Source of the DNA: a virus
Lineage: Duplodnaviria; Caudoviricetes
Reading direction: 5' to 3' (one strand)
DNA: 57,518 bases
IMG/VR virus record: IMGVR_UViG_3300009502_002970
Location: 1 to 57,518 of that record
The position numbers and the translations under genes were made by a program. The notes beneath the pieces were generated by a model. That model had not been told where the DNA came from. It saw only the letters and a list, made by a program, of their open reading frames with translations, and did not search any database. Positions 4,794 through 27,932 of this stretch are shown piece by piece. The first letter of the stretch is position 1; every line of letters starts with the position of its first letter.

Positions 4794-4833
4794 GCAGCAA
4801 TATTATAATTTGATGAACGAAAAATAAAGGACA
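4794..4833 (-). promoter_or_regulatory. Putative late promoter TGTCCTTT-N20-TAATATTG, leaderless
   Basis: TGTCCTTTA starts exactly 40 nt before the ATG at 4793; same geometry at other sites. Confidence 0.75.
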
Positions 4834-6477: not shown

Positions 6478-6479
6478 AC

Positions 6480-9782: not shown

Positions 9783-9784
9783 AA

Positions 9785-10246: not shown

Positions 10247-10261
10247 GGGATTATTTAATTA

Positions 10262-10771: not shown

Positions 10772-11576
10772 TTTCCGGGAATTTTCGTTTCAGTTCATAA
10801 TAATCGATCGACTTTTTCTCCAATCCAAAGAATACGTTGTACAGATTGGAGTTCATAATGCAGTTCAGGCTTGCATCATCGGTTTTTCCATCGGCCAGGG
10901 AGATCACCAGCGACGTCCACCCGCTCAGATCGCTTTTATCGGATCCTCCCGACTGCCTGTAAACATTCGGGAACTTTTCCATCAGGGATGCCTGTATCCC
11001 GGACAGGAACAGGAATACGGAATACTTGGTTGCATGATCTACCCTGCTCATCCGACCGGCGCGTGCCGGCAGGCTCTTGTCTATAAACCGCTGCCTGGGA
11101 TCATTGGATTCTGTAAACCGCTTGCTTATCAACCAGAACCACTTTCGGGGCCGGTAAAGTATTGCGGCCAGTTCGTCCAATGCTCTGGCATCCGGAGCCG
11201 ATGCATACTGCTCATAACGAACCTGGGCTTTTATGAACTCCCCGAAGGTACATTCCGACATGTTATCCGTCGGACCGGTATACCGGGTCCACGGGAACCG
11301 GGGCATTCGGATCGATTTGACAAGGCAACGCGTAAGCGTCACGTCGTTTTGCAGGAATGAAAAGGATTCTGAGAGGAAAATAACATCATCCGGAGCAATC
11401 TTTTTGAACTGCTTTAATCCCAGGGAAAGGAACTTCCGCAGGATGTTAACCTGGAAAGATGCAAGTGTGCCATACTTGCCGAAAATCGAACACACGTAGA
11501 TCAGCTGATCCCGGGTGAGCTCATTCCATCTAGATGGCAAAAACCTCTTCTTATTATCGATCAAAACCTCGACCAT
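10764..11576 (-). CDS. Phage protein (possible tail assembly chaperone)
   Basis: 270 aa, P..WNELT and TFGEF motifs; paralogue 53445-54257. Confidence 0.5.
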   Translation of the reverse strand: MVEVLIDNKKRFLPSRWNELTRDQLIYVCSIFGKYGTLASFQVNILRKFLSLGLKQFKKIAPDDVIFLSESFSFLQNDVTLTRCLVKSIRMPRFPWTRYTGPTDNMSECTFGEFIKAQVRYEQYASAPDARALDELAAILYRPRKWFWLISKRFTESNDPRQRFIDKSLPARAGRMSRVDHATKYSVFLFLSGIQASLMEKFPNVYRQSGGSDKSDLSGWTSLVISLADGKTDDASLNCIMNSNLYNVFFGLEKKSIDYYELKRKFPEND

Positions 11577-11851
11577 AATTGATCAATCAGTATAAAAACA
11601 ACATATAATGCCATTGCCACCTGTGACAGAGTCGGCTTTTTCGTCTTTGGTTTACACGCGATATCCTCCTGCATCGAGCTTTCAGGGTGAAATAATTTGT
11701 GTTCAGTTTTCATGATCATCAGTTCTTGTGTCAGATTTTCAATCCGGGCGATCATTTCTTTAAAATCGGCACGCTGGTTGCGCTGCTGGTAGAGATATGC
11801 TCCATTCAAAAGAGCGATTATCCCAAGGAGTACGGTGTTGTCATTGAGCAT
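11561..11851 (-). CDS. Small membrane protein (holin-like candidate)
   Basis: N-terminal TM helix, coiled coil, C-terminal hydrophobic segment; paralogue 54254-54532. Confidence 0.45.
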   Translation of the reverse strand: MLNDNTVLLGIIALLNGAYLYQQRNQRADFKEMIARIENLTQELMIMKTEHKLFHPESSMQEDIACKPKTKKPTLSQVAMALYVVFILIDQLWSRF

Positions 11852-11865
11852 GTGGATGAGGTTAA

Positions 11866-12924
11866 TTATGCAACAAAAATTGATTTATCACTCGTGTTAA
11901 TGAATTCAGCCCTGGTGACAGCAGTTGCTGGCCCAACGTAGCGGGATGATCCGAAGTATGCAGCATACTTCGTAGCTGAAGCGTTGTTGTCAAGGAACTC
12001 CTGCAGCGCCTTCATATCGGCGTCCCCATCCCTCTGATATGCTGCCTGCATTTCTCCCAGCCGGTTCTGCTGAAGCAGTGTCTTATTCTGAACATTTTTG
12101 AAGGTGTTGTCGGCCAGGTTGAATATCCCCCAGTCAAGCATGTCGATATTGATTTCCACCAGCGCCCTGGCCATGGTCAGATGTACCACGGCCGGCAGGA
12201 TGTAATCCATCAATTCCTTATTCTCATCTGTTAAGGTAGCCGAACTGGCAATTTGCGTATACAGCAGTTCATATAACTCCCTTGATAATGTGGGCATCAG
12301 GTAGCGCTGCTCAATGTTACGCATAAGCGGCATCATGGCCAGGAATACGCGCCTGGAGGCATGGATATCCGCATATACCTGGAATTGCTTTGCGTCTTTG
12401 ACCAGTAATTTTGAATCGTAAAAATCACCAGCCCGTTCATTGAACGTATCGAAGTTATTTTGAATCAATGCCAGGCACAGATCCATCTGCTCATGTGCCC
12501 GGGCAATGTAACGTTCCTTGACATTCATTACCTGGTACTGCGGCGCCGGCCGGTGCGTATCGCTCTGGATCACCGTCACACCCGTTCCTGATAGATTCAC
12601 CGACAATTCATCCACACTCAGGTACAAGGCGTACAATGATTCTGCCTTAATCACCAGGTGAATCAGTTTCCACCAGTTTAGTTCATCTAAAATCTCACGA
12701 GTAACTAGCGGCGTTTCGTCCTTCGATGGGATCTCTTCAGTTAATGTTGGATCGTCGTCCGTATTTAACCTATAAAAAAGGCTATTCATCATTGGTGTCG
12801 GGAACATCGGCATAATAAAGATGTTATGCGCATCGTCCACGAAAGGCTGCAGTAATTCAAACTTGAGCGTGACCGGCACCGGAGCTGCAGTGGCTATATG
12901 GTCAATGGATGTGACTAAGTTCAT
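11866..12924 (-). CDS. DUF6712-like protein (probable head-tail adaptor)
   Basis: Directly after portal; PAPQYQ and DIH.SRRVFL motifs; paralogue 54544-55599. Confidence 0.65.
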   Translation of the reverse strand: MNLVTSIDHIATAAPVPVTLKFELLQPFVDDAHNIFIMPMFPTPMMNSLFYRLNTDDDPTLTEEIPSKDETPLVTREILDELNWWKLIHLVIKAESLYALYLSVDELSVNLSGTGVTVIQSDTHRPAPQYQVMNVKERYIARAHEQMDLCLALIQNNFDTFNERAGDFYDSKLLVKDAKQFQVYADIHASRRVFLAMMPLMRNIEQRYLMPTLSRELYELLYTQIASSATLTDENKELMDYILPAVVHLTMARALVEINIDMLDWGIFNLADNTFKNVQNKTLLQQNRLGEMQAAYQRDGDADMKALQEFLDNNASATKYAAYFGSSRYVGPATAVTRAEFINTSDKSIFVA

Positions 12925-14249
12925 GGCTGTGTTTTATCAACTTTTTGATTGATTTTTGAGGGATGCTGATCCTGTGTCTGCGAGGTATCAACGCAGATAT
13001 AATCAAATTGGATGGTGGGATCCCAGTGATTGAAATCTCGGATGAAATACAGTGGCGAAAGTGATACGGCCCGGTCTGTTCCCATATCCGCGTTAAGCAT
13101 CCAGTATGCCTCACGTTTGTCAGATCCTGACCCGGCTCCCATTTTCCCTCCCGGGAGACCGGCACCTATCAGGCAGGGATCAACACCGATAGCAAACAGG
13201 ATCTCCGAGTTCGCCGCCTGTGAATCGGGAAGGTATGCCGAGTTCTCCAGCTTGTTTTCAATCACATTGATCTTCCACCCTGTTAAATAATCCTGTTTGG
13301 CTTTGCTATAGAACGCGTAAGTGACCAGGGCTTTTCCAGAATTCTCCACGTTAGCCAGGAAGTCATTCATATCCTGCAATACTTCCGCCCGTTTTGCCTC
13401 CCGCTGTTCCTTGGTATAGTCCGCAGGGGGGAAACGGGTGGTAAAATAATCATCCGGGATCTCAATGTGATACTTGATGGTCATCTGGTTCTTCATGATG
13501 GCTTCCTTAAGCATCGGAACCTTATTGGCGATGCTCAGCCACTTGTTCGCACGAACGGAGTGCCACACGGGAAGCGCGTAGTAACTTTTGTTGAAAGAAC
13601 GGTAAGAGAGCTGCATGGCAAACTGTCCATCCGGATACTTCGTGCCATCATACCTGGAGGAATCGAACATCGGCAGGTCCTTCATGTATGTACCATCATC
13701 CTGGGGCATCATTTCCCACCGGGCCGAATAGTACATGAAATCTATCTTGTCATTCTCATCCATCTTAGCCACGCGGCAATAGGCAGGATCCTTAACATAT
13801 ATCCTGTTTACCTGCGTTTTTCCCTTATTTAGGATAAATTCCACCCATCCGTTGGCAAAAATCTCCAGGCCCAGGATCAGATCCGGCCACTGCAGGTTGA
13901 TTTTGTTAACGCGAAAGAACTCCGTAACCACAGGATCAGTTACGATTTCCCTGGTAACCTCGCCTGCGGCGTCCTTTTTTTCACGGTAAGCGACGATTCC
14001 CCGCCCAAAATGAACCCTCTTGCGCTTGTCAAGTGCCCGCATGGCCACCGAATTCGATTCCAAATCAGTCAGCAGATCCTGCGGAAACAAATTGTTTGAT
14101 CCCCAGTTTGACCATAAATTGGGAGAAACATCATACGGCGGGGTGATAATTGGACCTGCATAGTCTGCAGAAGATCCTTTCATCTGCGCGATAGCCTTTG
14201 CCCCGGGCAATATGGCATAATCTCCCTGTACAATTACTCTGTTTTCCAT
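12921..14249 (-). CDS. Portal protein
   Basis: 442 aa; WGSNNLFPQ, YYALP.W, L..VENSGK and GSGSDKREA motifs typical of Bacteroidota phage portals. Confidence 0.8.
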   Translation of the reverse strand: MENRVIVQGDYAILPGAKAIAQMKGSSADYAGPIITPPYDVSPNLWSNWGSNNLFPQDLLTDLESNSVAMRALDKRKRVHFGRGIVAYREKKDAAGEVTREIVTDPVVTEFFRVNKINLQWPDLILGLEIFANGWVEFILNKGKTQVNRIYVKDPAYCRVAKMDENDKIDFMYYSARWEMMPQDDGTYMKDLPMFDSSRYDGTKYPDGQFAMQLSYRSFNKSYYALPVWHSVRANKWLSIANKVPMLKEAIMKNQMTIKYHIEIPDDYFTTRFPPADYTKEQREAKRAEVLQDMNDFLANVENSGKALVTYAFYSKAKQDYLTGWKINVIENKLENSAYLPDSQAANSEILFAIGVDPCLIGAGLPGGKMGAGSGSDKREAYWMLNADMGTDRAVSLSPLYFIRDFNHWDPTIQFDYICVDTSQTQDQHPSKINQKVDKTQP

Positions 14250-14590
14250 CAGAACACGACTTTTTGGTGATTAAATTCAATGATCAGGCGGATATGGATG
14301 GTCCTGATCTGTTTGTTAGGCAACAGGATGTTCCTTGTAGCATTCGCCCAGTGATGAGGATCACGTTTCTCTTTCACGGTCGTTTTCTTTTCCCTGGTAT
14401 CAAACACTACCTCATCATTGCGGGATCCCACGCATTTACGTGCACTGGGCACCTCTATGATTTCACCGCCTGTTTTACGCTGGCGGTCAGCCGTGACGAA
14501 CTTTAACTGAAAACTCATGGGCACGCCATTCTCATCGAGTTCGTCCATCATGTCGAGCGCTGTGCTGAGCTGTATGATCTTTCCTGCCAT
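14249..14590 (-). CDS. Conserved small phage protein upstream of portal
   Basis: DPHHWANATRNI and IRT.HIRLIIEFN conserved in 56930-57274. Confidence 0.7.
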   Translation of the reverse strand: MAGKIIQLSTALDMMDELDENGVPMSFQLKFVTADRQRKTGGEIIEVPSARKCVGSRNDEVVFDTREKKTTVKEKRDPHHWANATRNILLPNKQIRTIHIRLIIEFNHQKVVF

Positions 14591-14737: not shown

Positions 14738-14768
14738 AAAAAAAAGGTTCGCCCACCAGGGCGAACCT
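14738..14768 (-). terminator. Rho-independent terminator
   Basis: AGGTTCGCCC/GGGCGAACCT stem followed by T8 on - strand, downstream of 14791-15228. Confidence 0.85.
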
Positions 14769-14790
14769 CTAAGGAACGAAGGATCGAAGA

Positions 14791-15228
14791 TCAGAAGTTT
14801 ATTTCATTCTCTACTTCCAGTATGCTGGCGTCGAAGGCGGTCTTGAGGAACTCAATGACTTTCTTCACACCTGCAGTGAAGCTGGTGGTGAAAACATTGC
14901 CATCAGAGTCATTCAGTCGCATGGAACAGTTGAAATCGTTCGATGAAACCCTGAATCGTTCCAGTTCTGACCTGGTTTGTACCAGTTTTGCCCGTTTTTC
15001 GATCAATAATTCAAGATTTTCGATCAGTTCGATCTTTTCCTGCATGGTCATAACTTTCTTTGGAAGTTCGACCGAGGCAGCCTGATCAGCCTCCATCGCT
15101 TCCATCTGCTGGATGAATGAAGTTTCAATTTCAGTGGCCTGGATAATTTCAGCGACTTCAACTGCATGCGAATTTGTGCGTGACTTTGTCATGAGTGTCG
15201 CCCCTGCCCTGGGGACTTTTGTAGGCAT
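14791..15228 (-). CDS. Hypothetical coiled-coil protein
   Basis: 145 aa; C-terminus (RLNDSDGNVFTTSFT) conserved in partial ORF 57390-57518. Confidence 0.75.
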   Translation of the reverse strand: MPTKVPRAGATLMTKSRTNSHAVEVAEIIQATEIETSFIQQMEAMEADQAASVELPKKVMTMQEKIELIENLELLIEKRAKLVQTRSELERFRVSSNDFNCSMRLNDSDGNVFTTSFTAGVKKVIEFLKTAFDASILEVENEINF

Positions 15229-15244
15229 CTGGCACAGCCTGGTT

Positions 15245-15404
15245 AAAATTTATGCCAGAGAAACAATCGGAATGAAAATTCTGGAACAAACGTTCAGGTC
15301 ATGATCATGCAGTGATCTGAATGAACCCGAAGGGCGACGGATCCATCAGGAGGGCGCGTTTAGTGACACGATATTTTCGTGAGATTACCTTTGCATCAAA
15401 TTTT
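15245..15404 (+). promoter_or_regulatory. Long imperfect hairpin 1 (candidate ssDNA promoter / structured element)
   Basis: Arms aaaatttatgc..aatc and gatt..gcatcaaatttt; TACCTTTG at 15386-15393; core GTTCA-GGTC-GATCAT/GTGATC-TGAA-TGAAC-CCgaaGGG. Confidence 0.65.
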
Positions 15405-15559
15405 GAGTAATTGTGCGTTGGCTTTTGCTTGCTTTTCATAAAAGCTGCCCGTAAACCGGTTTTCTTTTTGGATGTCTTTTTCTTTGCCGGATTGGTCCCA
15501 AAGAAAAAGTCCCGACTCCGAACATCCGGAACCGAGACTTAACCTGGAAATAAATTAAG

Positions 15560-16180
15560 CTATAGCTTAATAACCATCCCTGCAGGTGTTAACTGCACTC
15601 TCTTATGCTGAAGAACTATACCGCTTTTCCTTATGTCATTGCCGCCAGAAATAAGATTAACGATCGATATTATTCCAAATAACCCGGCAGCGCCGCCAAC
15701 AGCATAAATTGAATTCCTCTGCGCATCTACATCTTTTATTAACTGTGGGATTAATGCCGTTGAAGTTGTAAGAAGTACTGAAATGCAGCCATAAATACCG
15801 GCATTCCTCAAGTCTTCCCCTCCCATCCTCATTAATTCACCGGATATTTCATCATCAGTCATGCCAGATTTAAATCCTGTTATTATTTTGCCATAATCAT
15901 TTTTATACTGCCACTCTTGATTCTTATTAAGGTTGGTTTTTGGTAAACTTTGGCCATTTGTACCATCACCTCTGCCGGCCATTTTCATAAACTTTATCGA
16001 ATCATTATTTACAGTCCTTATTGTCGAGTCGGGCGGAACGGTATAAATAATATTTATTCTATCCCGATTAATGATATTTACATTCATTATTTTGCCGGAA
16101 TTCATAATAATTGTATCCTGTGACTGTACGGAAACTGTCATTAACAAGATGATTGAGATAAAAAGAAAAGTAGTTTTCAT
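15560..16180 (-). CDS. Secreted/membrane hypothetical protein (moron-like)
   Basis: Signal peptide ..VSVQS-QDTI, two C-terminal TM helices, AT-rich. Confidence 0.7.
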   Translation of the reverse strand: MKTTFLFISIILLMTVSVQSQDTIIMNSGKIMNVNIINRDRINIIYTVPPDSTIRTVNNDSIKFMKMAGRGDGTNGQSLPKTNLNKNQEWQYKNDYGKIITGFKSGMTDDEISGELMRMGGEDLRNAGIYGCISVLLTTSTALIPQLIKDVDAQRNSIYAVGGAAGLFGIISIVNLISGGNDIRKSGIVLQHKRVQLTPAGMVIKL

Positions 16181-16264
16181 GGCTTTATTTTTGTGCAATT
16201 TATAATAATTTTCTCAATTGTGAAAAATAGCGCCCGGATAGTATGCCCCGGGCGCATTAAATGA

Positions 16265-16600
16265 TCACGCCTCAATGGATAACGGCGGATCAGATGGCAA
16301 CTTTACCTCTTCCCTGGATAAAGCGTTTAACAAGCTTTCGTACACCGGTTCCAGGTCTTCAATCAGTTCGCTGATCTCCTTGTACAGGAAACACAGATCA
16401 GCGCGGTATTCGGGTGTCCACTGTTCCGACTCGTCAGAACTCATGGCCACCACAAACAACTGTCGCAGGTACCGGTTAGCAAATTTGGATTTCGTGATTA
16501 AAAAGAAACTGTCCAGGATATCGAGTATCGATTGTTCTACCGGACTGCCACAAAGGGCGCATGTGGTTGCATTCTCGTCATTTGATCTTTGCATAATCAT
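16265..16600 (-). CDS. Hypothetical protein with CxxC; paralogue of 34597-34875
   Basis: RQLFVVAMSSDESEQWTPEYRA vs RQMFVAAISAEESAVWTQEHRA. Confidence 0.65.
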   Translation of the reverse strand: MIMQRSNDENATTCALCGSPVEQSILDILDSFFLITKSKFANRYLRQLFVVAMSSDESEQWTPEYRADLCFLYKEISELIEDLEPVYESLLNALSREEVKLPSDPPLSIEA

Positions 16601-16696
16601 GAATTTAATTGTTAAAAAATCAGGGAAGGTCGCTGCAGACATAACAAACTTTTGGTTAATTGGTACACTCACAGTGAAATTTATTTTTGGTACCTA

Positions 16697-17242
16697 TCAA
16701 ATATTTGCAATTTTCGATAACCTTTCAGCTCTTAAAGTATCCAAAAATACTCGCCATATTTCATCCCAGAACAGCAAAAACAGCGGAGAAATTCCATAAC
16801 AGATAGGGGGATCATAATTAAACGTTTGCATGAGTGCCGGGCAATATCTTTCCAGGTTATTAAAAAAATCATGTTCCTGTATACGGAAAGGATATTCAAG
16901 CTCTGTCCAGATCACCCTGGCTGTATTGACATGAGTGCTTCCTGATCTTACACTGCATACAACTTCACGTTTGATGGTCTGGATCGTGCGTTCCATATCC
17001 AGCGTGTGGGCGCATCCAAATTTTCTGGCAACATAGTGCTTGTCCAATCCTTCAAGAAACTGTTTAAATGGTTCGCCACAGGCTCCCCAGTAGTAGGACC
17101 AGTTGCCATAATCCGAGGCTATTGATAACCTACCACTTTTCCCATGCGTATCCACGTTGATGTCGGCCCATGGAGTTGCAGAAGAATGCCTTATCTTGTA
17201 GCATTCGATATTATTTTTTGTGATAATAAAGTCTTTTTTCAT
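16697..17242 (-). CDS. Hypothetical phage accessory protein
   Basis: 181 aa ORF with I.SDYGNWSYYW motif, A-rich upstream region. Confidence 0.65.
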   Translation of the reverse strand: MKKDFIITKNNIECYKIRHSSATPWADINVDTHGKSGRLSIASDYGNWSYYWGACGEPFKQFLEGLDKHYVARKFGCAHTLDMERTIQTIKREVVCSVRSGSTHVNTARVIWTELEYPFRIQEHDFFNNLERYCPALMQTFNYDPPICYGISPLFLLFWDEIWRVFLDTLRAERLSKIANI

Positions 17243-17262
17243 TGTTGCGTTTTATTAATTTA

Positions 17263-17301
17263 TCTGACCAACCCTCATGCTGAGCCTGAGGGTTGGTCAG
17301 A
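17263..17301. terminator. Perfect inverted repeat (terminator/stability hairpin)
   Basis: tctgaccaaccctca / tgagggttggtcaga 15-bp stem between two co-directional genes. Confidence 0.6.
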
Positions 17302-17310
17302 AATTTCAAA

Positions 17311-17856
17311 TTATCCCCCGAATTCTTCCTGGTTCCTGAACAGATCAAGCTGGTTTCGGTTGTTTTTGCCCCGGCTGTATGCTGCCTGGCGCTCCTCCAG
17401 TTCAAGACGTTCGATTTCGAAGTACCGTTCATCCTTCAGCAGTTCGGCCCTCAGCTCTTCGATACGGTTCTTTCTGGCGGCACTCTGGCGAAGGCTTTCT
17501 TCAGTTTTGCGCAGCCGGCCGAATAACAGATCGTCGATAGTCGAATAAACCCAAAGTTCGAATGCCGGGCTTAACCATGCGGCAAATTTCAGAGCAAGAA
17601 TACGGTGCATCCAGGTGCCGGATTTCTGTGAAGAAATAATTAAATCATCCTCGGATTTTATGTTTAAATAACGCTGATTAGCGTTATTTAAACATTCTGC
17701 GATGAACAATTTCGACTCTTCAATGCGGGTAAAATTTTCCACACGTTTGTCAAAAATCTTCGCCATCTGTGTGGCATTGATCATTAAATTATGATTTCCC
17801 TGTTCAAAATCGACTTCCAATCCGTTGAACTCAAATTTCACGATGTTTTTTTTCAT
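17311..17856 (-). CDS. KilA-N domain DNA-binding protein
   Basis: MINATQMAKIF and GTWMHRILALKFAAWLSPAFELWVY, plus C-terminal coiled coil. Confidence 0.9.
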   Translation of the reverse strand: MKKNIVKFEFNGLEVDFEQGNHNLMINATQMAKIFDKRVENFTRIEESKLFIAECLNNANQRYLNIKSEDDLIISSQKSGTWMHRILALKFAAWLSPAFELWVYSTIDDLLFGRLRKTEESLRQSAARKNRIEELRAELLKDERYFEIERLELEERQAAYSRGKNNRNQLDLFRNQEEFGG

Positions 17857-17947
17857 TGTTTTACTGTTTTTGTGTTGGGTTAGTATAATTGATTGATTAA
17901 AAAAGGTTGAATAAGGGGATATCCCCCTATTCAACCTGACTTCCTTC

Positions 17948-19657
17948 CTATTTCTTCTTGTTTTTCTTCGCATTCAATTCCCCTTCCAGCTCCAGGATAC
18001 GCATCTTGATGGTGTGGTTGCGTTTGGCATAACTGGCATTAATCTTATCGGTAATGGCCGCCATCTCATCCGCGTAAAAAAACGTGATCACGCTAAACAG
18101 AAGCATTACCTTATCCTTGTTGCTATTCGGATCCGTCTCCTGCAGTTTATACCTGAGCCAATACCTGAACTTTACGATATCCTCATCATGGGGAATGATC
18201 ATGGGAGTGGTTGATTTGCACACGCACTGCTTATCCGTGTACGTATGTCTGTGCGAATCATACATCAGGAACATGAAAGCCCTGGTCTCACTATTTGTGA
18301 TCAAACAACCCGACTTATGATAGTTCGACTTGCGAAACATCTCATAAGCCTGGTTATATGTTTTCTCAAATGCCAGTTCTTCATTACGTTTGAGTTTCTC
18401 GCGCAGCTGCTCCAATTCCTTTGCCTTGTCCAAACCTGCCGGTGTCATGTCAGCGGAAATATCCCGTGACCCAGTGGGCATATAGTGTACGATTTCTCCC
18501 CTGTTATGGCCGGCCACCATCAGCACCTTGACAACGTTTCCTGCTGCAATATCAGCGTTGTATGTTTCAAGTTCGGCCTCGTAATCGGCCATTTCCACAT
18601 AATAGTTGTCAATATCATCCGAAAATTCCTCATCATCGTCAACTTCAGTGTAGTCTTCCCTTTCTGGTTTTTCAGGCATCTGCGGCGGATTTATCCTCTT
18701 GAATCCCGTATCGTACGAGAATTCATTGACCAGTATATTATCAGCCTTGATCTTCTTGATGATTTCCTTGTCATTTTCCGGGATATAGGTATCCACGCCG
18801 ATAGCAATTCCCGGTTCATTGTCTGTGATCCTTTTAACTTCCTTCAGCAGGAACGCTTCTTTTTTCTTCTTTAGGCATGACACGTTCATGCAGATCCCTT
18901 CACCTTCCAGGGGAAACAGGCCGTATCCGGAATTAGTGTTGTCCGGGCATGAATTGCATGCCGGTCTTCCCGGGAGCAAGGTGTCATCATACAGCCCGAA
19001 GGATATTTCAGCAAGCTTGGCCGAATACATTCGCTCGATCCAGTTCTTCAGCTGTGATATTGAAGGAGGATCCCAGTGATTTGATTCGTGATTTTTAAAC
19101 GCAAAATCGTACAGTTCTTCCTGTCCTGGTTGTGAAAGCTTTGCAACCTCCAGTATGGTTGTCATGTTGATCCGATCGGATACCCACAACAGTTTGAATG
19201 GTGCGGTAAGATCATTCAGCTTCAACCGCATCCGGATATATCCTTGAGATTTGCCGAACTTGAGCGCCAGGTCAGCGATAGTATGGTGCCCTTCCCGGAT
19301 CAGGTTGATATATGCGTGCGCTTCTTCCAGCGGATGGATGTCTTCCCGCTGCAGGTTCTCGGTGATGGTCAGTTCCATCACCTCATCATCGGATAGATCA
19401 CGGCAGATACATGGCACCTCAGTCATTCCGGCAATGGCAGCTGCTTTCATCCTGCGTTCGCCGCAGACAACCTGGTATTTGAGTTTCTTGTTTGTACCAT
19501 GCACGCGCACGATCAGCGGGGAAAGGATCCCGACTTCTTTAATGGAAGCGGCCAGCTCTTCCAGGTTCTCTTTCACGAAGCTTTGCCTGGGATTTATCCC
19601 ACTGGCTGCAAGATCCTTCAGCGGGATCATGGTAATTGTTGGTGATTCTGTTTTCAT
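17948..19657 (-). CDS. ParB/RepB/Spo0J family protein (long form)
   Basis: NPRQSF..LEELAASI..G..PL.VR, GERR, ENLQREDIHPLEEA, HTH, CxxC cluster, acidic tract. Confidence 0.9.
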   Translation of the reverse strand: MKTESPTITMIPLKDLAASGINPRQSFVKENLEELAASIKEVGILSPLIVRVHGTNKKLKYQVVCGERRMKAAAIAGMTEVPCICRDLSDDEVMELTITENLQREDIHPLEEAHAYINLIREGHHTIADLALKFGKSQGYIRMRLKLNDLTAPFKLLWVSDRINMTTILEVAKLSQPGQEELYDFAFKNHESNHWDPPSISQLKNWIERMYSAKLAEISFGLYDDTLLPGRPACNSCPDNTNSGYGLFPLEGEGICMNVSCLKKKKEAFLLKEVKRITDNEPGIAIGVDTYIPENDKEIIKKIKADNILVNEFSYDTGFKRINPPQMPEKPEREDYTEVDDDEEFSDDIDNYYVEMADYEAELETYNADIAAGNVVKVLMVAGHNRGEIVHYMPTGSRDISADMTPAGLDKAKELEQLREKLKRNEELAFEKTYNQAYEMFRKSNYHKSGCLITNSETRAFMFLMYDSHRHTYTDKQCVCKSTTPMIIPHDEDIVKFRYWLRYKLQETDPNSNKDKVMLLFSVITFFYADEMAAITDKINASYAKRNHTIKMRILELEGELNAKKNKKK

Positions 19658-19751
19658 TTTGTTGGGTTTGGGTTAGTAAAAGTATTTGTTGCAAAAAATA
19701 CAATTCGATACAGCCGCCATATGGCGGCTGTATACTCATTAACAGAAATTA

Positions 19752-19982
19752 TTATTCAAACATTATTTTATCAATGATGTCGGATGTAGTATATCCAAGT
19801 TTGACATTATATTTTGTTTCAATTTTCTTGATCATTTCGCTGCATTTATTCCGTATTTCATCACCAATCTTTTGTTTATCCTTTTCGCTTATATCAGATT
19901 CCTCGAAAGCAAACGAATCAAATTGTTCACCGGATTTTGCAATTAGTGCCGTTGCTATATCTTTTGCCATTTCCTTTGTCAT
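19752..19982 (-). CDS. Small hypothetical protein
   Basis: 76 aa AT-rich ORF flanked by hairpins at 19708-19733 and 20021-20046. Confidence 0.55.
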   Translation of the reverse strand: MTKEMAKDIATALIAKSGEQFDSFAFEESDISEKDKQKIGDEIRNKCSEMIKKIETKYNVKLGYTTSDIIDKIMFE

Positions 19983-20150
19983 AACCCTGATTTTTTAAAA
20001 TTGAACTTCTGTTAATTGCCGCTAACCGCCATACACGGCGGTTAGCCCTGTGCATTAGGGGCAATAGAGGATGATGACTTTCACCATCCTATGCCCCGTA
20101 ATTTTACAACCTTACAAGCCTTGCCTTTAAGCATTCGTTGTAGGTGCCAT

Positions 20151-20501
20151 TTACCCTGCAGATTCGGCATACTCAACTTTTTTAGGATAAATTACTTCGG
20201 CAAACAAATTCTCAACGGTTGCCATCAGTTTCGATGGCAACACGGTCTGTGTATCCAGCGCGATGGTGGTATCAGCAGCCCACAGGGTGATGCACCATCC
20301 GAACCTAAGGAAATGTTTCTTCCTGGTCTCCGAGTAAACGTACATGTAACGAGGCATGATCGACACGTATCTGAACGTGTCAATCGTTTTCATTGCGCCA
20401 AAGGCGGTTGATTTCCCGTCAAACGTCGTCCCACACCTGTGAAATCCCAGGGATTTAAGCAGCGGCCAGCAGGTAGTTTTTGAAATGTCGATTGTTTCCA
20501 T
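20151..20501 (-). CDS. Hypothetical protein
   Basis: 116 aa, closely spaced with upstream ORF. Confidence 0.55.
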   Translation of the reverse strand: METIDISKTTCWPLLKSLGFHRCGTTFDGKSTAFGAMKTIDTFRYVSIMPRYMYVYSETRKKHFLRFGWCITLWAADTTIALDTQTVLPSKLMATVENLFAEVIYPKKVEYAESAG

Positions 20502-20506
20502 TGGGA

Positions 20507-20824
20507 TCAGTGTTTGAGATTCACAAAGTCGGTGTTGATCAGGTGGAACTTTGATCTTTCCACCGCTGGAATATGTTCACAGGTTGTGAATACAAAATTG
20601 ACTTTCGGATTTCTTTCCCTTAATACATCAAGAGAAAGAATATCCTTTAGTGATGTACATTCTTCAATGATCACCAGGTCATAGGAGAAAACTGTATACG
20701 TGTTCTTCTTGATAAATTCCCTGGTCGTTAGAAGGAAGTTTACACCAAACAAATGTGCGATACCAAGACTGATCCACGACTTTCCTGAAGCATGCGGACC
20801 ACTGATTATAATTGCCTTATTCAT
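20507..20824 (-). CDS. Small P-loop NTPase-like protein
   Basis: Walker A GPHASGKS, Walker B-like LVIIEE; only 105 aa. Confidence 0.55.
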   Translation of the reverse strand: MNKAIIISGPHASGKSWISLGIAHLFGVNFLLTTREFIKKNTYTVFSYDLVIIEECTSLKDILSLDVLRERNPKVNFVFTTCEHIPAVERSKFHLINTDFVNLKH

Positions 20825-20974
20825 CTTTTGTTGCCGGTGCCATCCGGTCTTTTTGAGGGTTTCATGGCGTTCCCTGGGTTAGTTGTTTGAATTATTTTAA
20901 AAACATATCGACAACAAAGTAAATACATTTGAATATATAATCCAAATGTATTTACTTTATTATCTAAATTATTT

Positions 20975-21709
20975 TCACATGGCACCATCATCTGCAAAGG
21001 AATAATACTGATCCCCGCCAATGATGATATGATCGAGCACGGCAATGTCAAGCAAAGCGCCGCTGTCGTGTATCTTCTTGGTGATCCGGATATCAGCCTC
21101 ACTGGGCGTTGTAACGCCCGACGGGTGATTATGTCCCAGGATGATCGATGATGCATGATGATCAAGGCATACCTTGAATATCTTCTTTGGATCCACTACA
21201 GTTCCGGATATCCCGCCTTCGGAAATCCGATGCCGGCCGATCACTTTGTTTGCCCGGTTGAGCATCAGGATCCAGAACTCTTCATAAGGCAGATCGCGCA
21301 TCAGGGATGCCAGTATCCTCCTGGCGTCATCACTGCGGGAAATCTTATCCCGGATAACTGCCTCACATGCCTGTTCCCGCCGGCACATGGAGAACATGGC
21401 TGCCAGTCTCACTGCAATTCCCTGGCCAATGCCTGGTACCTGGCACATGTCAGCCACGCTCATCTTCCACAGCTCCTGCAGGTGATTGTTGCATGCAGCC
21501 AGCAGTGTCCTGGAGATGTTCAGTGAAGTATTTCCAGCTATGCCATTGCCAATGATCAGCGAGAGGATCTCGGCATCAGATAGTGCATGGGTCCCCTTGA
21601 GTAACAGTTTGGTTTCAGGGAGATCATCCTCGGCCCAAAGGCGCATGGGGATTTCATTTGCGTAATTGCGACCATCTTCGGCCACCCGGGATACAGTTGA
21701 TTTTTTCAT
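20975..21709 (-). CDS. radC: RadC-family JAB domain protein
   Basis: N-terminal ALSDAEIL and HhH (VPGIGQG), JAB motif HNHPSG...PSEAD, LDHIIIG. Confidence 0.95.
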   Translation of the reverse strand: MKKSTVSRVAEDGRNYANEIPMRLWAEDDLPETKLLLKGTHALSDAEILSLIIGNGIAGNTSLNISRTLLAACNNHLQELWKMSVADMCQVPGIGQGIAVRLAAMFSMCRREQACEAVIRDKISRSDDARRILASLMRDLPYEEFWILMLNRANKVIGRHRISEGGISGTVVDPKKIFKVCLDHHASSIILGHNHPSGVTTPSEADIRITKKIHDSGALLDIAVLDHIIIGGDQYYSFADDGAM

Positions 21710-21731
21710 AGGAGTAAGGGTTAAGGTTAGA

Positions 21732-21876
21732 ATGAAATTTTCTCGCCCTGGCTCTTAAACCGGATTGATCGGATCAGGTCAATAGTGTTGGTCAGATTAC
21801 ACGGTAATCTGAATACACCCAACGGGCACCGCTGTTGAGCGTTCCGATCGATGCAGGTACCTTGGAAAGATTTCAT
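21732..21876 (+). promoter_or_regulatory. Long imperfect hairpin 2 (candidate ssDNA promoter) upstream of radC
   Basis: atgaaattttc/gaaagatttcat and attgatcgga/tccgatcgat stems; TACCTTGG at 21858-21865; same GGTC/TGAA core. Confidence 0.65.
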
Positions 21877-21924
21877 GCGAACCTACCCTCTCCATATCCC
21901 AATCACGTGGCGGTATTGGGGCAT

Positions 21925-21950
21925 AAAAAAAGCCCTGTTGCCAGGGCTTT
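21925..21950 (-). terminator. Rho-independent terminator
   Basis: aaagccctg/cagggcttt stem with T7 on - strand after HTH gene. Confidence 0.8.
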
Positions 21951-21962
21951 ATAATAATCAGG

Positions 21963-22253
21963 TCATCCCTGATCCGCTGGCCGTCGCCATCGGTTCTTCA
22001 TGGTTTCCACCAACTCATCTTCTGCATTCTTGTCAATAATAAACACATAGGTATCAATGACATCACAGAGGGTTATGAGATTATCCAATGTGATGTTGTG
22101 ATTTCCCGACAACATCCTGAATACATTGGGCTGCTCGAACCCTGTTAATTCAGCGATCTTATAGGTTGACAAACCTTTTTCCTTCGCGGTTTCACGCAAA
22201 TATTTGCACAGTAACTTCCTGGCATAAATTATCTTATCATTTTGCATAAACAT
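21963..22253 (-). CDS. XRE/Cro-family HTH regulator
   Basis: GLSTYKIAELTGFEQPNVFRMLSG..NITLDNL. Confidence 0.85.
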   Translation of the reverse strand: MFMQNDKIIYARKLLCKYLRETAKEKGLSTYKIAELTGFEQPNVFRMLSGNHNITLDNLITLCDVIDTYVFIIDKNAEDELVETMKNRWRRPADQG

Positions 22254-22294
22254 AATTTTAAAGGGCCGGTTTCCCGGCCCCGGTGTTTAAATAA

Positions 22295-22561
22295 TTAATC
22301 GGCGTTATTCCAAGCTTTTGCCAACCAAACTTCGGCAGCATGCGCTTCAGCATATATTGCATATTCGCAGTTACCAGACTTTGCCCGTGCATAGGCGAGA
22401 CTTACCTCTTCAGCACATTTTTTTGATAACCAATTTTCATTTTTAGCAAAAATTGAAGCTTCTACTTCGAACTGATCACAGGCGGCAAGATATGCCGCAC
22501 TCTTATTGGTGATGGTTGCATCTGTCCTGATTTTCTCGATGGTGTCAAATTGTGTGTTCAT
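22295..22561 (-). CDS. Hypothetical protein
   Basis: 88 aa from MNTQF, A-rich leader. Confidence 0.6.
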   Translation of the reverse strand: MNTQFDTIEKIRTDATITNKSAAYLAACDQFEVEASIFAKNENWLSKKCAEEVSLAYARAKSGNCEYAIYAEAHAAEVWLAKAWNNAD

Positions 22562-22756
22562 GGCGTTTTTTTTTTGATTGTTTGATGAAACAAAGATAAT
22601 ATCATTTATGATATTACACAAGTATTTAACTGTTATTTTTGAACAGCTGAGTAATTTATTTCTATTCTAAATAACACTGATCAGTGTCCAAACGCGAGTA
22701 CTCGCGTAATGCCGCGCGATTCTGCCGCGCCTTACAGCCATAAGGCATCCGAGCAT

Positions 22757-22786
22757 AAAAAAAGGGTACGGTATTCACCCGTACCC
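22757..22786 (-). terminator. Rho-independent terminator
   Basis: gggtacgg/ccgtaccc stem with T7 on - strand. Confidence 0.8.
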
Positions 22787-22795
22787 GATGTTCAT

Positions 22796-22966
22796 TTATT
22801 TTTTCACTGAGCACTGGCTTTGCAATTCAGCCATTTCCCACATAAGTTTATCCAGGTTTGTTTCTGCAATGTTTTCTACATAGCCGGGGTAATAGATACT
22901 ATCCAAGGTTTCGATGAACATCTGTTCGTAAGACTGATCTAGCGTAGTTTTTTCGAGCGTTGTCAT
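22796..22966 (-). CDS. Small acidic protein (56 aa, not in ORF track)
   Basis: MTTLEKTTLDQSYEQMFIETLDSIYYPGYVENIAETNLDKLMWEMAELQSQCSVKK; lies between hairpin 3 and a terminator. Confidence 0.7.
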   Translation of the reverse strand: MTTLEKTTLDQSYEQMFIETLDSIYYPGYVENIAETNLDKLMWEMAELQSQCSVKK

Positions 22967-22992
22967 GGCTTTAGAGATTAAGGATTAATACT

Positions 22993-23201
22993 GAAAGTTT
23001 CTCTCTAAGCGAAGCTTCACACCGAATCGGTTGAATTATGTCACAGAGTGCAGGTCACGATTCCCACTATCGAATCTGAATGCACCCCAGGGGCACGGCT
23101 CTTGACAGTACGGGTTCTTCAAGGGATACTCTCCCACCCCGGAGAAACCCGTGAAGAACCCGTAGGCAATTCAACCGATATAGGTACCTTGGAAACGTTT
23201 C
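22993..23201 (+). promoter_or_regulatory. Long branched hairpin 3 (candidate ssDNA promoter)
   Basis: atcggttgaatt/aattcaaccgat 12 bp, tacgggttcttca/tgaagaacccgta 13 bp; TACCTTGG at 23185-23192; same core. Confidence 0.7.
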
Positions 23202-23601
23202 GAGGATTAACCATTCCGCCTAACCGGATAGATCGGTGATCTGTGCCGGTGCATCAAAGGGTTTCTTTTTGCCAGCTTTTTCTTTTCCCGTTTTTCAAAA
23301 GAAAAAGCTGCCCGGATTGCATCTCATGCAAATAAAATGGCGTTTGCAGTCAAAAAACAGGCATTTTTCAAGCCTCCAAAATATTAACCGGCGATCATAA
23401 CCAAAATATTGCATTTTGTGTATGATTGTCCCACGCCCCGCCCTGACGCTTTTTTGACAATTTCAAAGGCTCTCCATGCAGGATATATGAAAAGGCTGTT
23501 TAGAATGGTTCTACATGGGTTCACAATGCACACGCGCCCAATACATAAAGAACTGCTCCCCTATGATGCAGACGCACTATGTTGTAAAGTTGTGTGTAGG
23601 A

Positions 23602-25101
23602 CTATCCTATGATGGACATGTCATGTGATGGCTCATGATCACCAACACTTTGAAAGAACATCCAGTAGTAAAGGTTGTCAACTGCATCACTCAGATCAGT
23701 TGCCTTCCACCTTGGTTGCCCTTCCCTGCGCTCTGATGACTTATCCTTCTTGAACTCACTGGGCAGCACAGGCGCACTGTCCATGGACACAAAGGTCTCC
23801 ATTGCATTGTTCATGTTGATCCTGAAGTCAGGCGTGTTGCCACTGTCATTCATGAGGAACTTATGCCAGAAGATGAACTTATCCATGTGAGATATCTCAT
23901 GCAGTTCAGCACACACGTTGACTATCCATCCTGCCTTGGTTAGTTGCATGGTCACATCATCGAAGTACGTCTGCCTTGATGATGCATCATTGCGACGCGT
24001 ACCATCACTGCCACCATAGATGTTGATTGCCTTACGCTGATGATGCTGGTAATACTCGATGAACTTATCTACCAGTACTGCCAGTGTTTCATTCTCCACA
24101 TAGAAGTTCTTGATGATAGGGAACTCATTGCTTACCCTGTGCCATTGACACACGACCATGCAGTTCTGGGTAGATCCGAAGTCGAATGATGCATACAGTT
24201 CAAGGGCACTGATACAGTCAGCATCACCCCTTGAATCCAGGCCGCCATCTTTAAGATCATGACCTATGCCATCATAGAACGCATAGTTGTACGAATCATA
24301 ATAGCAATGCTTTGCAGCGCTCAGCGCTGGATAGAAACCATTGATGTTTGTTTTGCGGCGGATATTCTCGATCTCTATATCATACACCAATGCAGGTAAT
24401 GTTCGTTTGGCATCACGAAAATAGCGCGCTCCCAGGATTCTTTCATTATATCTGGCTGATGCTTCCAGGAACATGAACTCCTTGGGAAATTCAGTCTCCA
24501 TTTTTTCGTATTCAAAAACCCAGTCACCTCCAGGAGTAAGAGGCTGTGATCCCAGGAACAAGGTACCATGATGAAAGCGTATATGCCCGAACTTATCTCC
24601 ATTGCCACGATTCGCAGGCAACACATCAGAATCGATCGCGCTTTTCTTGAGTTTTGTAGCCTCGTCAAAGATCATGTAATCATAGGATCCTGACCTGGCC
24701 ATCTCCGGCCGGTCGAAGGAATTGAACTCAACCACAAACCCGTTATACCAATGAATGCAGTTGGTATAATCCAACGGCGGCTGAAAAGGTTCGGGCCAAC
24801 CCAGTTTTTTCGGCGCCCGGACACCAACAAAGTAATGCAATCCCCGGTATAATCCCCTGCGCTCCAGGTGAGATATGATAGGCGGCATCGATTTGGTTCT
24901 GATATGGAAATAAGTCAGACCGTTAAGAGATATTTTTCCCCTGGGCATGAACATCATGCAATCAAGTATCTGATCAGCGATGATGGTTGTCTTACCTACA
25001 CCCCTGCCTCCGATAAACATCTTGTGAGGCCGGGTGCACAGCTTGATCACACGCTGCGGGTAGTTATAATATGGGGCCGGGACGATCTCTATATCCTGCA
25101 T
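23602..25101 (-). CDS. terL: Terminase large subunit
   Basis: Walker A GGRGVGKT, Walker B MIFDEA, RNase H-like FDFG and DLSDAVD. Confidence 0.9.
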   Translation of the reverse strand: MQDIEIVPAPYYNYPQRVIKLCTRPHKMFIGGRGVGKTTIIADQILDCMMFMPRGKISLNGLTYFHIRTKSMPPIISHLERRGLYRGLHYFVGVRAPKKLGWPEPFQPPLDYTNCIHWYNGFVVEFNSFDRPEMARSGSYDYMIFDEATKLKKSAIDSDVLPANRGNGDKFGHIRFHHGTLFLGSQPLTPGGDWVFEYEKMETEFPKEFMFLEASARYNERILGARYFRDAKRTLPALVYDIEIENIRRKTNINGFYPALSAAKHCYYDSYNYAFYDGIGHDLKDGGLDSRGDADCISALELYASFDFGSTQNCMVVCQWHRVSNEFPIIKNFYVENETLAVLVDKFIEYYQHHQRKAINIYGGSDGTRRNDASSRQTYFDDVTMQLTKAGWIVNVCAELHEISHMDKFIFWHKFLMNDSGNTPDFRINMNNAMETFVSMDSAPVLPSEFKKDKSSERREGQPRWKATDLSDAVDNLYYWMFFQSVGDHEPSHDMSIIG

Positions 25102-26549: not shown

Positions 26550-27232
26550 TTTGCCAGCAGCTTATCAACCTCGAACAGCTGCTCTTCGTATGCTGCCAAT
26601 GACAGCCGGTAATGATCTTGTTTCGCTTCTTTGCCCGGGTTCTTCAGATACCCTTTGATCCGGGAGATGTGTGAACGGATATTCGTTCGGGCCTTGATCA
26701 GTTCAACCGGGTCCAGGGTAGACACTGAAGGTTTCTCTTTCTTACCTGATTTCCCGGCCACCGGTGGCAACACCCCATACTTTTCAAAATGGTTTTTCCT
26801 CTGGTACATGGCATCAAGTTCATCAGCTACATCCAGGATCATCAGTGCATCATGCCTGCGCTGATCATCACCTACCAGCTCGAGGGTTGCATGAAGTGTG
26901 TCCAGGGCTTTCCAGTGCATCTTGATATCCTTGAGCAGCGCGGCAATATCACCCTTGTCATCATTGGAGATGCCTACCCTGGTGATCACTACGGGCGCCG
27001 CCGGCGCATTGACCTGAACCGGTGCAACCCTTTTGGGTGGCACTGTGAACGGTTGCACTGATCCCAGCAGCTGTGTCAGTTCATGCACCAATGTTTCATG
27101 CATGGCCGGCGAAGGATCCTGCCGGGTTAGCAACCGCTTGAGGTTACCGCTGCTTCCATACAGTTCATAGAGTTCTACTCCCCGGGCAAAGTCACGTGAC
27201 GATGCCAGCCAGGCTTTTATTGCTTCATTCAT
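26546..27232 (-). CDS. Hypothetical phage protein
   Basis: 228 aa from MNEAIKAWL; coupled to neighbours. Confidence 0.65.
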   Translation of the reverse strand: MNEAIKAWLASSRDFARGVELYELYGSSGNLKRLLTRQDPSPAMHETLVHELTQLLGSVQPFTVPPKRVAPVQVNAPAAPVVITRVGISNDDKGDIAALLKDIKMHWKALDTLHATLELVGDDQRRHDALMILDVADELDAMYQRKNHFEKYGVLPPVAGKSGKKEKPSVSTLDPVELIKARTNIRSHISRIKGYLKNPGKEAKQDHYRLSLAAYEEQLFEVDKLLAK

Positions 27233-27932
27233 CGAGCAAAGATTTTTGTTCTGCCAAAAATTGGTGCCACTCAGGCGACTTCCGGTCCGGGGCAAAGGAG
27301 AATGACTTAGGATGCACCCGGTAGTCCATCAGTACTGCCTCCATATTATATAAGGTATGACCGTTCAACAGGTACTTAATCCAGAGGGAATAATCTTCGG
27401 CCAGATGTGATGGTGTGGGGTTATACCCACCGAGCTTCAGCAGGGTATCGCGCTGAAAACACACACCCGGGTGATTAATGAACCAGTGACCGGGCATACC
27501 TGCAGCCACCTTCCTGGTTACTTCTGCAGGATGATGCGAATACCATTCCCGTTCATTGTTAAAAAGGCGTATCTGGATCCCACATACCTGCCGGTAGGGA
27601 TACAGTTTGAAGAACCAGTTATGATACATCAGCAGATCCGTATGCGCGATGTCATCTGCATCCATGCGCACAACCAGGTCACCACTGCAGAACTTCAGGC
27701 CGAAGTTCAGTGCTGCAGCAATCCCTTCATTTTTAAACTTACGGACTAAGGTTACCCGCAGGAATGCCACGTCAAGCCACTGCAGGTAATTATACAATGG
27801 TCCTGCAGGATTATTATCATCTACAATAACCAGTTGAAAATCCTGGAAACTTTGTGCCAGGATCGAGTCCACGGCCTCCTGTACCCATTCAACAGGTGTG
27901 GCATAAATCGGCATTAGTACACTAATTCGCAT
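27225..27932 (-). CDS. Glycosyltransferase family 2
   Basis: ISVLMPIY, VIVDD, RMDADD, HP, EDY.LW motifs. Confidence 0.92.
   Translation of the reverse strand: MRISVLMPIYATPVEWVQEAVDSILAQSFQDFQLVIVDDNNPAGPLYNYLQWLDVAFLRVTLVRKFKNEGIAAALNFGLKFCSGDLVVRMDADDIAHTDLLMYHNWFFKLYPYRQVCGIQIRLFNNEREWYSHHPAEVTRKVAAGMPGHWFINHPGVCFQRDTLLKLGGYNPTPSHLAEDYSLWIKYLLNGHTLYNMEAVLMDYRVHPKSFSFAPDRKSPEWHQFLAEQKSLLDE

Follow-up and report, generated by a model that had tools for sequence, protein, structure and literature searches.

Predicted hairpin promoters ahead of minus-strand genes in a Bacteroidales tailed prophage and in related islands

Hairpin elements in the window and their family

The window analysed here is the whole 57,518-nucleotide stretch of IMG/VR record IMGVR_UViG_3300009502_002970 (positions 1 to 57,518), which by its gene content is a tailed prophage. 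Three related hairpin elements, E1, E2 and E3, lie on its plus strand upstream of three minus-strand genes, encoding a 145-amino-acid (aa) protein (p145), a RadC-like protein and a 56-aa protein (p56). This observation, first made in an earlier note on the same DNA, was confirmed, and each element is read below as a predicted promoter that would be present only while the template strand of its downstream gene is folded. Elements were located by sequence and with a covariance model (R2), and were found where the earlier note had placed them. Run over the whole window with filters off, R2 returned exactly three copies, all on the plus strand; the next match scored 16.8 bits (E ~1). The core ATCTGAATRNACCCNANGGGC occurred three times in the window, each time on the plus strand, against 0.00 occurrences expected from 100 shuffles. 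The cores of E1, E2 and E3 follow a common layout of GGTCA, a variable hairpin, TGAAT and ACCCnAnGGGC.

E1 (15243..15415, plus strand; R2 166.6 bits, E 1.2e-26) is a full copy of the family and lies upstream of the minus-strand p145 gene. Its basal helix, P1, is formed by AAAATTTATGC (15245..15255, plus strand) and a partner at 15393-15404 with one bulged C at 15397. The box TACCTTTG (15386..15393, plus strand) stands in the 3' arm, in the internal loop between P1 and the next helix, and the apical core (15297..15334, plus strand) comprises GGTCA, the variable hairpin, TGAAT and the mini hairpin CCCGAAGGG (15326-15334). E2 (21732..21885, plus strand; R2 49.6 bits, E 2.1e-06), upstream of radC, is a divergent copy that lacks the third hairpin. 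Its parts were assigned on the plus strand from fold and sequence, with P1 formed by 21732-21744 and 21864-21876, the box TACCTTGG at 21858-21865 and the core at 21790-21826. E3 (22992..23212, plus strand; R2 32.2 bits, E 0.0021), upstream of the 56-aa gene, is a divergent copy with an extra hairpin at 23110-23163; by the same means P1 was placed at 22991-23003 and 23191-23204, the box, again TACCTTGG, at 23185-23192 and the core at 23053-23093, all on the plus strand.

Each of the three stretches was folded as a long imperfect stem, as the earlier note had described. The G.T-containing pairings that it cited, tcaatagtg/cgctgttga in E2 and atgaaaat/attttcgt in E1, are present in the sequence, and the boxes were verified at 15386, 21858 and 23185. 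Its figure of 16-26 nucleotides (nt) from stem base to start codon was revised: the distance to the annotated ATG was measured as 14, 22 and 25 nt for the p145 open reading frame (ORF), radC and the 56-aa ORF, respectively, and the p145 leader is probably about 50 nt, its conserved start being Met13.

A covariance model was built and searched, a step that the earlier note had proposed, and one family was recovered, with 62 distinct copies (alignment A5) and with covariation. With a model made from seven copies (R1), 271 matches at E <=0.001 were obtained in 59 of 90 genomes of the host's family. The source genome holds at least 15 copies on nine contigs. Family matches often cluster, with two to five same-strand copies 0.5-8 kb apart, and in six multi-copy loci all 20 copies were co-oriented within their locus. 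Every p145 homologue found elsewhere in the source genome with upstream sequence (5/5) carries a copy; for the homologue in the second structural module of the prophage, described below, the contig end at C136:135065 falls about 35 nt before the expected start of a copy. E2 and E3 of the window were not among the R1 matches at family scale, so the count falls short where copies are divergent. In an order-level scan, in which 18 candidates were scored per genome, 4 of 151 sampled genomes were matched, two of them outside the home family. An Rfam match, which would have pointed to a transcribed RNA with another function, was looked for in Rfam 15: no match reached the gathering score in the whole window, and none fell on the elements at E up to 5 (15000-23500). 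A search for tRNA and tmRNA genes found none, and blastn of the region of E1 and p145 against phage and plasmid collections gave no match.

Fold, folding strand and -7 box

From base to apex the fold consists of P1 around AAATTT, an internal loop, a long imperfect helix and an apical junction. The junction bears an invariant GGTCA/TGAAT hairpin, a CC-NNN-GG mini hairpin and, in most copies, a third hairpin. In the 62 copies of A5, 91.1% of cells were paired and compensatory changes were found in 30 of 41 pairs. As controls, pairing partners were slid by one to three columns, which gave 36-52% paired, and alignments were shuffled, none of 500 shuffles reaching the observed measures. After extension of the model by P1 and the two-pair mini hairpin, 87.6% of cells were paired and 38 of 56 pairs were compensated. 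Column pair 3:285 in P1, for example, is AU in 34 sequences and GC in 11, and of the two mini-hairpin pairs one is CG in 48 sequences and UA in 13, the other CG in 44 and UA in 7. Single-sequence folding of the plus strand with DNA parameters gave z scores of -1.3 (E1), -3.7 (E2) and -5.2 (E3). These thermodynamic values are only moderate, and the case for the fold therefore rests on covariation.

Wobbles among the model pairs comprised G.T in 97 cells of 20 pair columns versus A.C in 45 cells of 7, some of the A.C cells adjoining columns that seem misaligned in one subtype. Compared with its complement, the element strand had the lower folding energy in 57 of 60 copies (DNA parameters) and 56 of 60 (RNA parameters). 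Against a dinucleotide shuffle, the mean strand difference was -3.11 kcal/mol observed versus -1.37 shuffled (net -1.74), and 47 of 60 copies beat their own null. An ORF of at least 40 aa begins 8-58 nt from the 5' end of the element, on the opposite strand, in 64 of 65 cases; the remaining copy has a flank of 70 nt only. The favoured folding strand is always the template strand of the downstream gene. The earlier note's statement that this strand folds better than its complement was borne out across the family by the wobbles and by both sets of energies.

At one fixed position in the 3'-arm loop, 55 of 62 copies have an exact TAnnTTTG, and 61 of 62 fit the looser pattern TAnnTT[TGC]G. TAnnTTTG is the deduced -7 consensus of the Bacteroidota primary sigma factor, sigma-A, and a -33 TTTG is less general, as set out in the text of PMC7366714. 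In the element alignment the T, A, T, T and G columns of the box are each conserved at at least 90%, the third T of TTTG at at least 80%, and the two n positions at at least 50% and at least 80%. Structurally, the box starts with a T that closes a helix, continues with six bases of the internal loop and ends in the G with which P1 begins; the roughly nine bases of the 5' arm that face the box are variable. A conserved -7 box opposite a poorly paired 5' arm, which the earlier note had described from three copies, is thus a feature of the family. The note had also stated that in the duplex the box points away from the gene, and here too the family agreed: TAnnTTTG on the gene-sense strand was found inside the element in 0 of 62 copies, and within 100 nt upstream of it in 1 of 62. 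In the commonest subtype, conservation extends just past P1 to TTTTGAGTAA, for which the fold offers no partner. Antisense -7 boxes were also seen inside the downstream gene in 14 flanks; they overlap the first codons of p145 and ArdC genes and were set aside as codon coincidence.

Downstream genes, transcription units and genomic setting

The p145 gene (14791..15228, minus strand) was taken as a 145-aa ORF with a probable conserved start at Met13 (15192). The first 12 codons of the ORF (15192-15228) are probably noncoding, homologues beginning at Met13, and the stretch upstream of Met13 is a conserved leader that is in frame with the gene in only part of the copies. The p145 protein gave no match in Pfam, NCBIfam or PHROG. 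Its AlphaFold model (mean pLDDT 70.6) has a helical hairpin and a small beta hairpin. Fold searches of the PDB and BFVD returned no match at E <=0.001; a wide VIA-align search reached Z 7.9 with generic helical hairpins only, and its small-terminase rows (E 0.09-2) are not evidence of kinship. Downstream of E2 lies the gene for a RadC-like JAB protein of 244 aa (20975..21709, minus strand; Pfam RadC 5.1e-43, UPF0758_N 4.8e-17), and downstream of E3 the 56-aa p56 gene (22796..22966, minus strand), homologues of which stand behind copies on contigs C47 and C140 and in L057. Across the family, the genes behind copies encode the p145 family (133-148 aa), ArdC-like proteins (ArdcN 7.4e-21 plus a zincin peptidase), long and short RadC proteins, a single-strand-binding protein (SSB; 6.7e-22, behind one copy), the 56-aa family and other small proteins. 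Element subtype tracks the downstream gene family, as is expected of a promoter. In ArdC units (L053, L057, L056, L010, L055, L006, L036), 21 pairs had an alignment across the element, and in 13 of these the homology block of element plus ArdC has its limit close to the distal end of the element, 1 nt inside it or 9 nt past it. By this sequence comparison, units of element plus ArdC behave as cassettes.

Intrinsic terminators were scored on the minus strand directly before two of the elements. One, at 15507..15540, has a 15-pair stem and a T run and closes the unit upstream of E1; the other, at 21929..21950, follows a helix-turn-helix (HTH) gene and precedes E2. Further intrinsic terminators were scored on the minus strand after p145 (14770..14743) and after p56 (22786..22764), and none was scored from the terminase gene to E3. 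Between 14500 and 24000 only three sense-strand -7 boxes were found (22598, 20950 and 16749), none of which precedes p145, radC or p56. With no sense-strand box ahead of them, these three units have no visible duplex promoter. Two exact TAnnTTTG boxes stand back to back at 22598 (minus strand) and 22634 (plus strand) and flank the start of an operon that ends in a Cro/C1-type HTH gene (21963-22253); the pair looks like an ordinary divergent regulatory region. A second inverted repeat (CTTTTTCTTT...AAAGAAAAAG), with a stem of 11-14 bp and no T run, was seen upstream of E1 (15476-15509) and of E3 (23272-23309), and related GCTTTT...AAAAGC hairpins adjoin other copies of the element.

A conserved leader of about 50 nt (AACC.GGCGAGCCAGATGCC.AAAAAAGT) separates element from start codon at 15190-15243 of the window and in L023, L010, L053 and others. 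It is common to p145 and ArdC units and absent from RadC and p56 units, including those of E2 and E3. Its end is formed, in 40 of 61 leaders, by a four-pair hairpin whose covarying stems enclose an AGGGCA loop. The wobbles of this hairpin are few and lie on the sense strand, opposite to those of the element, in a count that admitted sense-strand wobbles only. The AGGGCA hairpin is a hint, from its covariation, of a leader that may act at the RNA level.

The markers of the prophage are the large terminase subunit (TerL; 23602..25101, minus strand; phrog_2 2.6e-11; 28-31% identity to phage terminases), a head maturation protease (phrog_53 8.3e-44, Peptidase_S49), a primase-like protein of 742 aa, and weak tape-measure and portal matches. 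The terminase gene forms the upstream border, and the gene of the putative portal protein (12921..14249, minus strand; weak PHROG portal match) the downstream border, of a slot in which the elements lie. The order TerL, elements, p145, putative portal is kept on contig C56 and in L054. Seven phage regions were examined (the window, C56 and C47 of the source genome, the phage of the complete genome G055 and three IMG/VR contigs), and in all seven the elements occupy the space from terminase to p145 and portal; different phages carry different sets of element-gene units in this slot. Outside the slot, the window contains two tandem related structural modules (1-14590 and 43385-57518), each running from p145 and portal to tape-measure and tail genes. 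Between the modules the portal, the DUF6712 protein and the tape measure share 51-71% amino-acid identity, and the second p145 homologue runs off the window. A glycosyltransferase-like cluster (GT2, TOD1/MUCI70-like, Stealth CR2/CR4) lies at 27225-30110 between the capsid genes and the terminase, and a region of low GC content (0.32-0.36) between the two prophage units, at 40000-44000, contains small ORFs without a family match.

The second setting of the elements is islands of 15-20 kb with a tyrosine integrase, an excisionase, VapE, a primase and, in places, restriction-modification or other defence genes. Those of G055 (L052:18200 to L053:14100) and G053 (L055), of about 16-20 kb, adjoin mnmE. 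They also carry ArdC, RadC, SSB and p145 units and either a type IIG restriction-modification pair or an AAA_21/RloB pair, and they may be satellites or mobilisable elements. The island primase is of the Toprim/CHC2 type, and p145 is common to islands and phages. The G053 island encodes a 1229-aa RecD-like helicase whose N-terminal half has no assigned family, and a 308-aa island protein matched nothing in the searches made.

Predicted hairpin promoters and the alternatives

On balance we consider it somewhat more likely than not, from the sequence comparisons above, that each element is a hairpin promoter of the single-strand type for the host sigma-A polymerase. About 170 nt of the downstream gene's template strand would fold into P1, the internal loop, the long imperfect helix and the apical junction with two or three hairpins. 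The 3' arm would then serve as the non-template strand, its TAnnTTTG unpaired from the outset in the internal loop; the helix above would take the place of upstream promoter DNA, and P1 that of downstream DNA. RNA polymerase would initiate inside P1 and move along the 5' arm (in E1, the predicted start lies on the template arm at 15245..15255), and the transcript would cross a conserved leader of about 20-55 nt into the gene for ArdC, SSB, RadC, p145, p56 or another protein. In plain duplex DNA the box faces away from the gene, so the unit would be silent, and the upstream terminators would insulate it. Use of the box by RNA polymerase and the timing of folding are what we infer. Three sources of the folded strand may be considered. 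The strand displaced in rolling-circle replication of the phage or island is one, and since it is always the same strand, it would fit the uniform orientation of the elements. Another candidate is a hairpin extruded from supercoiled duplex while SSB melts the weaker hairpin of the complementary strand, in the manner of phage N4, and a third is resection of an injected DNA end.

The earlier note had proposed single-strand promoters for the three window copies. That proposal is upheld in part: the fold, the wobble bias, the conserved box, the lack of a sense-strand box, the terminators upstream of E1 and E2 and the ArdC, SSB and RadC genes speak for it, while an unclear -33 box, imperfect boxes in E2 and E3 and the lack of homology to Frpo, the hairpin promoter of the F plasmid, do not. 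The points that weigh against it concern the signal, the fold, the distribution and the setting. E1 has the exact consensus, and E2 and E3 have TACCTTGG, which agrees at 5 of 6 consensus positions and is not TTTG. A -33 TTTG at the usual spacing is not evident; the nearest TTTA/TTGA is at least 22-23 nt from the box, lying 22-23 nt upstream in one subtype and farther off in another, where a hairpin intervenes; such an inserted hairpin is present in many copies. The text of PMC7366714 reports that a -33 motif could not be found in one further member of the phylum either. With DNA parameters E1 has a z score of -1.3 on both strands and is not significantly structured on its own. Base composition accounts for part of the strand bias, as is seen from the shuffled difference of -1.37 kcal/mol. 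In the window itself, the plus strand clearly folds better than the minus strand in E2, and to that extent the earlier note's strand claim stood; in E1 and E3 the advantage appears with RNA parameters only, and with DNA parameters the two strands of E3 are equal. The copies are related, so the family counts overstate independence.

As to distribution, ArdC genes from other families of the order showed a recognisable copy at only 2 of 21 analysable loci (L155 and L156, both divergent; 4 of the 25 loci in the set were left out, their alignment having begun late or no ATG being found). The element as a general rule for ArdC genes in the order is unsupported by this count; on sequence matches the device is lineage-specific and not phylum-wide, as far as the model sees. 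The setting also weighs against the proposal: it is one of double-stranded DNA tailed phages and integrase/primase islands, neither of them known to pass through a single-stranded stage. Conjugation markers were searched for with four Pfam families in five genomes that have 4 to 13 model matches each. The relaxase PF03432 was absent from four of the five and lay 3 Mb from the elements in the fifth, G053, and TraM (PF12508) and Mob_Pre were absent from all five. TraG-D_C was found only in G053, 3 Mb from its elements, apart from a marginal 23-bit match on G000:C3. A conjugative setting was rejected for the source genome, G055, G042 and G051 on the strength of searches with these four families, which might miss an unrecognised relaxase. 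The earlier note's description of a tailed-phage setting with no relaxase in view thus agrees with the phage markers and with the Pfam searches.

Several other explanations were weighed against a promoter. The folded strand might be a single-strand initiation or priming site at which RNA polymerase, or a primase of the element itself, is brought in to prime the complementary strand, gene expression being secondary. Primer-making sites of this kind are known from the sso and ssi sites of plasmids and from the minus-strand origin of phage f1. Both the minus-strand origin of filamentous phages and the sso sites are single-strand hairpins that mimic a promoter, work on one strand only and are used by host RNA polymerase; they make short replication primers, with a single site per replicon and no link to start codons. 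A strand-specific conserved fold, primase genes in both settings (the 742-aa primase-like protein in the phage, Toprim/CHC2 and VapE in the islands) and the SSB gene behind one copy agree with such a role. The elements, however, are multi-copy and gene-proximal: three to five copies per mobile element, each standing 8-58 nt ahead of a start codon and each associated with one gene family, fit gene control better, and the conserved leader between element and gene suggests a transcript meant for translation. We regard priming as the chief function as unlikely, while noting that it overlaps with a promoter and does not exclude one, since Frpo is described as doing both (Masai and Arai are said to have reported in 1997 that it serves priming and gene expression alike). 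It is also quite unlikely that the element is a structured 5' leader of messenger RNA, transcribed on the gene's strand from farther upstream and acting as an attenuator, processing site, stabiliser or protein-binding site. The complement does fold well (mean -43 kcal/mol with RNA parameters; z -2.6 and -3.7 for the complements of E2 and E3), and the element lies directly ahead of start codons. Yet wobbles (97 G.T vs 45 A.C) and folding energy (56/60 with RNA parameters) favour the other strand, 61 of 62 copies have no sense-strand -7 box in the element or in the 100 nt upstream, terminators stand directly upstream of E1 and E2, Rfam gave no match at E up to 5, and a conserved TAnnTTTG would be meaningless on the RNA strand.

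That the box belongs to an ordinary duplex promoter firing away from the gene, with an antisense or regulatory plus-strand transcript and a palindrome that serves as a protein site or barrier, appears very unlikely. It would account for a box that is a good consensus match on the plus strand and for the conservation of TTTTGAGTAA beyond P1 without a partner in the commonest subtype. Against this, no conserved ORF, RNA fold or plus-strand terminator was found in that direction in the window (15507-15540 being scored on the minus strand only), and the compensatory changes over some 50 pairs would go unexplained, as a protein site would conserve sequence and not pairing; so would the placement of the box in an unpaired loop and the tracking of subtype with the gene on the other side. 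Finally, the folded template strand might be what a recombinase acts on when it rearranges cassettes within the terminase-portal slot and the islands, in the manner of integron attC sites, which are structure-conserved, strand-specific folded template-strand sites between co-oriented gene units. Same-strand arrays do separate single-gene units here, the fold lies on the template strand, which is the strand used by attC, the points where homology stops are concentrated at the element's distal edge (-1 or +9 nt in 13 of 21 pairs), and the islands encode a tyrosine recombinase of the Phage_integrase family. This explanation is weakened by the fact that the whole element travels with the downstream gene and not with the upstream one: an attC belongs to the upstream cassette and has no promoter box, whereas the element belongs to the downstream gene and carries TAnnTTTG, a pattern of sigma-factor sites. 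At about 170 nt and branched, it is also longer than attC sites (57-141 nt), and no recombinase was found beside the arrays in the phage slots examined. We consider an attC-like role most improbable.

For the hairpin promoter, the closest known systems are the Frpo and ssi sites of the leading regions of F and ColIb-P9, as described in the text of PMC9849209 and PMC11541004. In these, too, one strand forms a long imperfect stem-loop and is the strand from which the genes behind it are transcribed, several copies lie on the same strand a few kb apart, and formation of the duplex would switch the promoters off (PMC9849209, PMC11541004). The plasmid stem-loops rebuild the boxes of the host's primary sigma factor (PMC9849209, PMC11541004); in the present elements only the -7 box is clear. 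The genes behind the plasmid promoters include, in the same accounts, ssb and anti-restriction genes such as ardA (PMC9849209, PMC11541004). The elements nevertheless differ from Frpo and ssi in carrying a Bacteroidota -7 box and not -35 and -10 boxes, in their branched fold with a conserved apical core, and in lying in a terminase-portal slot or in islands and not in a conjugative leading region next to oriT. With no relaxase or type IV secretion gene recognised in these phages and islands by the Pfam searches above, there would be no transferred strand, unlike in Frpo and ssi. When 14780-15470 of the window was compared with 72,556 PLSDB plasmids by blastn (distant mode), no match was obtained at E 1e-3, with no direct comparison to Frpo included. 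On this search the elements show no homology to Frpo, so 'Frpo-like' is true of the design only.

Phage N4 is a double-stranded DNA phage whose early promoters are template-strand hairpins extruded from the duplex with the help of SSB. Its hairpins have stems of 5-7 bp and loops of 3 nt and are read by a giant phage polymerase. N4 thus offers a possible route by which a double-stranded DNA phage may use hairpin promoters. The elements here differ in measuring about 170 nt and in carrying a host sigma-A box, and no gene for a giant virion RNA polymerase was seen in the window, where the largest ORF has 1101 aa; this holds for the window and not for the rest of the prophage. N4-like hairpin promoters are mentioned in PMC3715699. 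In the pLS20 family of conjugative plasmids of Firmicutes, a single-stranded promoter serves establishment genes, which extends the design beyond Proteobacteria, as given in PMC8708921; it differs from the elements in being conjugative, in belonging to another phylum and in its promoter type, structure not having been compared. Single-strand promoters are thus already known from conjugative plasmids of Proteobacteria and from plasmids of Firmicutes, and with respect to the literature covered, what would be new here is the Bacteroidota -7 grammar and the tailed-phage setting. Literature searches, in which few subscription journals were covered, returned nothing on single-strand promoters in Bacteroidota or in prophages, and the text of a 2024 survey of leading regions, supplementary tables aside, does not contain the word stem 'Bacteroid' (PMC11541004).

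More tentatively, we suggest that environmental Bacteroidales double-stranded DNA tailed phages, and small integrative islands with genes in common with them, may run insulated establishment and anti-defence genes for ArdC, SSB, RadC and uncharacterised proteins, each with a private promoter that would be present only in the folded template strand. The elements form a clean test bed for the reading of a pre-melted -7 element by the sigma-A of this phylum. If the proposal is true, the model would also be a cheap marker for early and anti-defence genes, with p145, p56 and the 136-aa families as candidates, and the hairpin-promoter device would have arisen with a different sigma-factor grammar. 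The phages and islands would then have a functionally important single-stranded or extruded phase, in replication, DNA entry or end resection, that serves as a timing switch, as in conjugative plasmids but without conjugation and with the Bacteroidota -7 grammar. Use of the device by tailed phages and satellite-like islands would raise the question of when their DNA is single-stranded.

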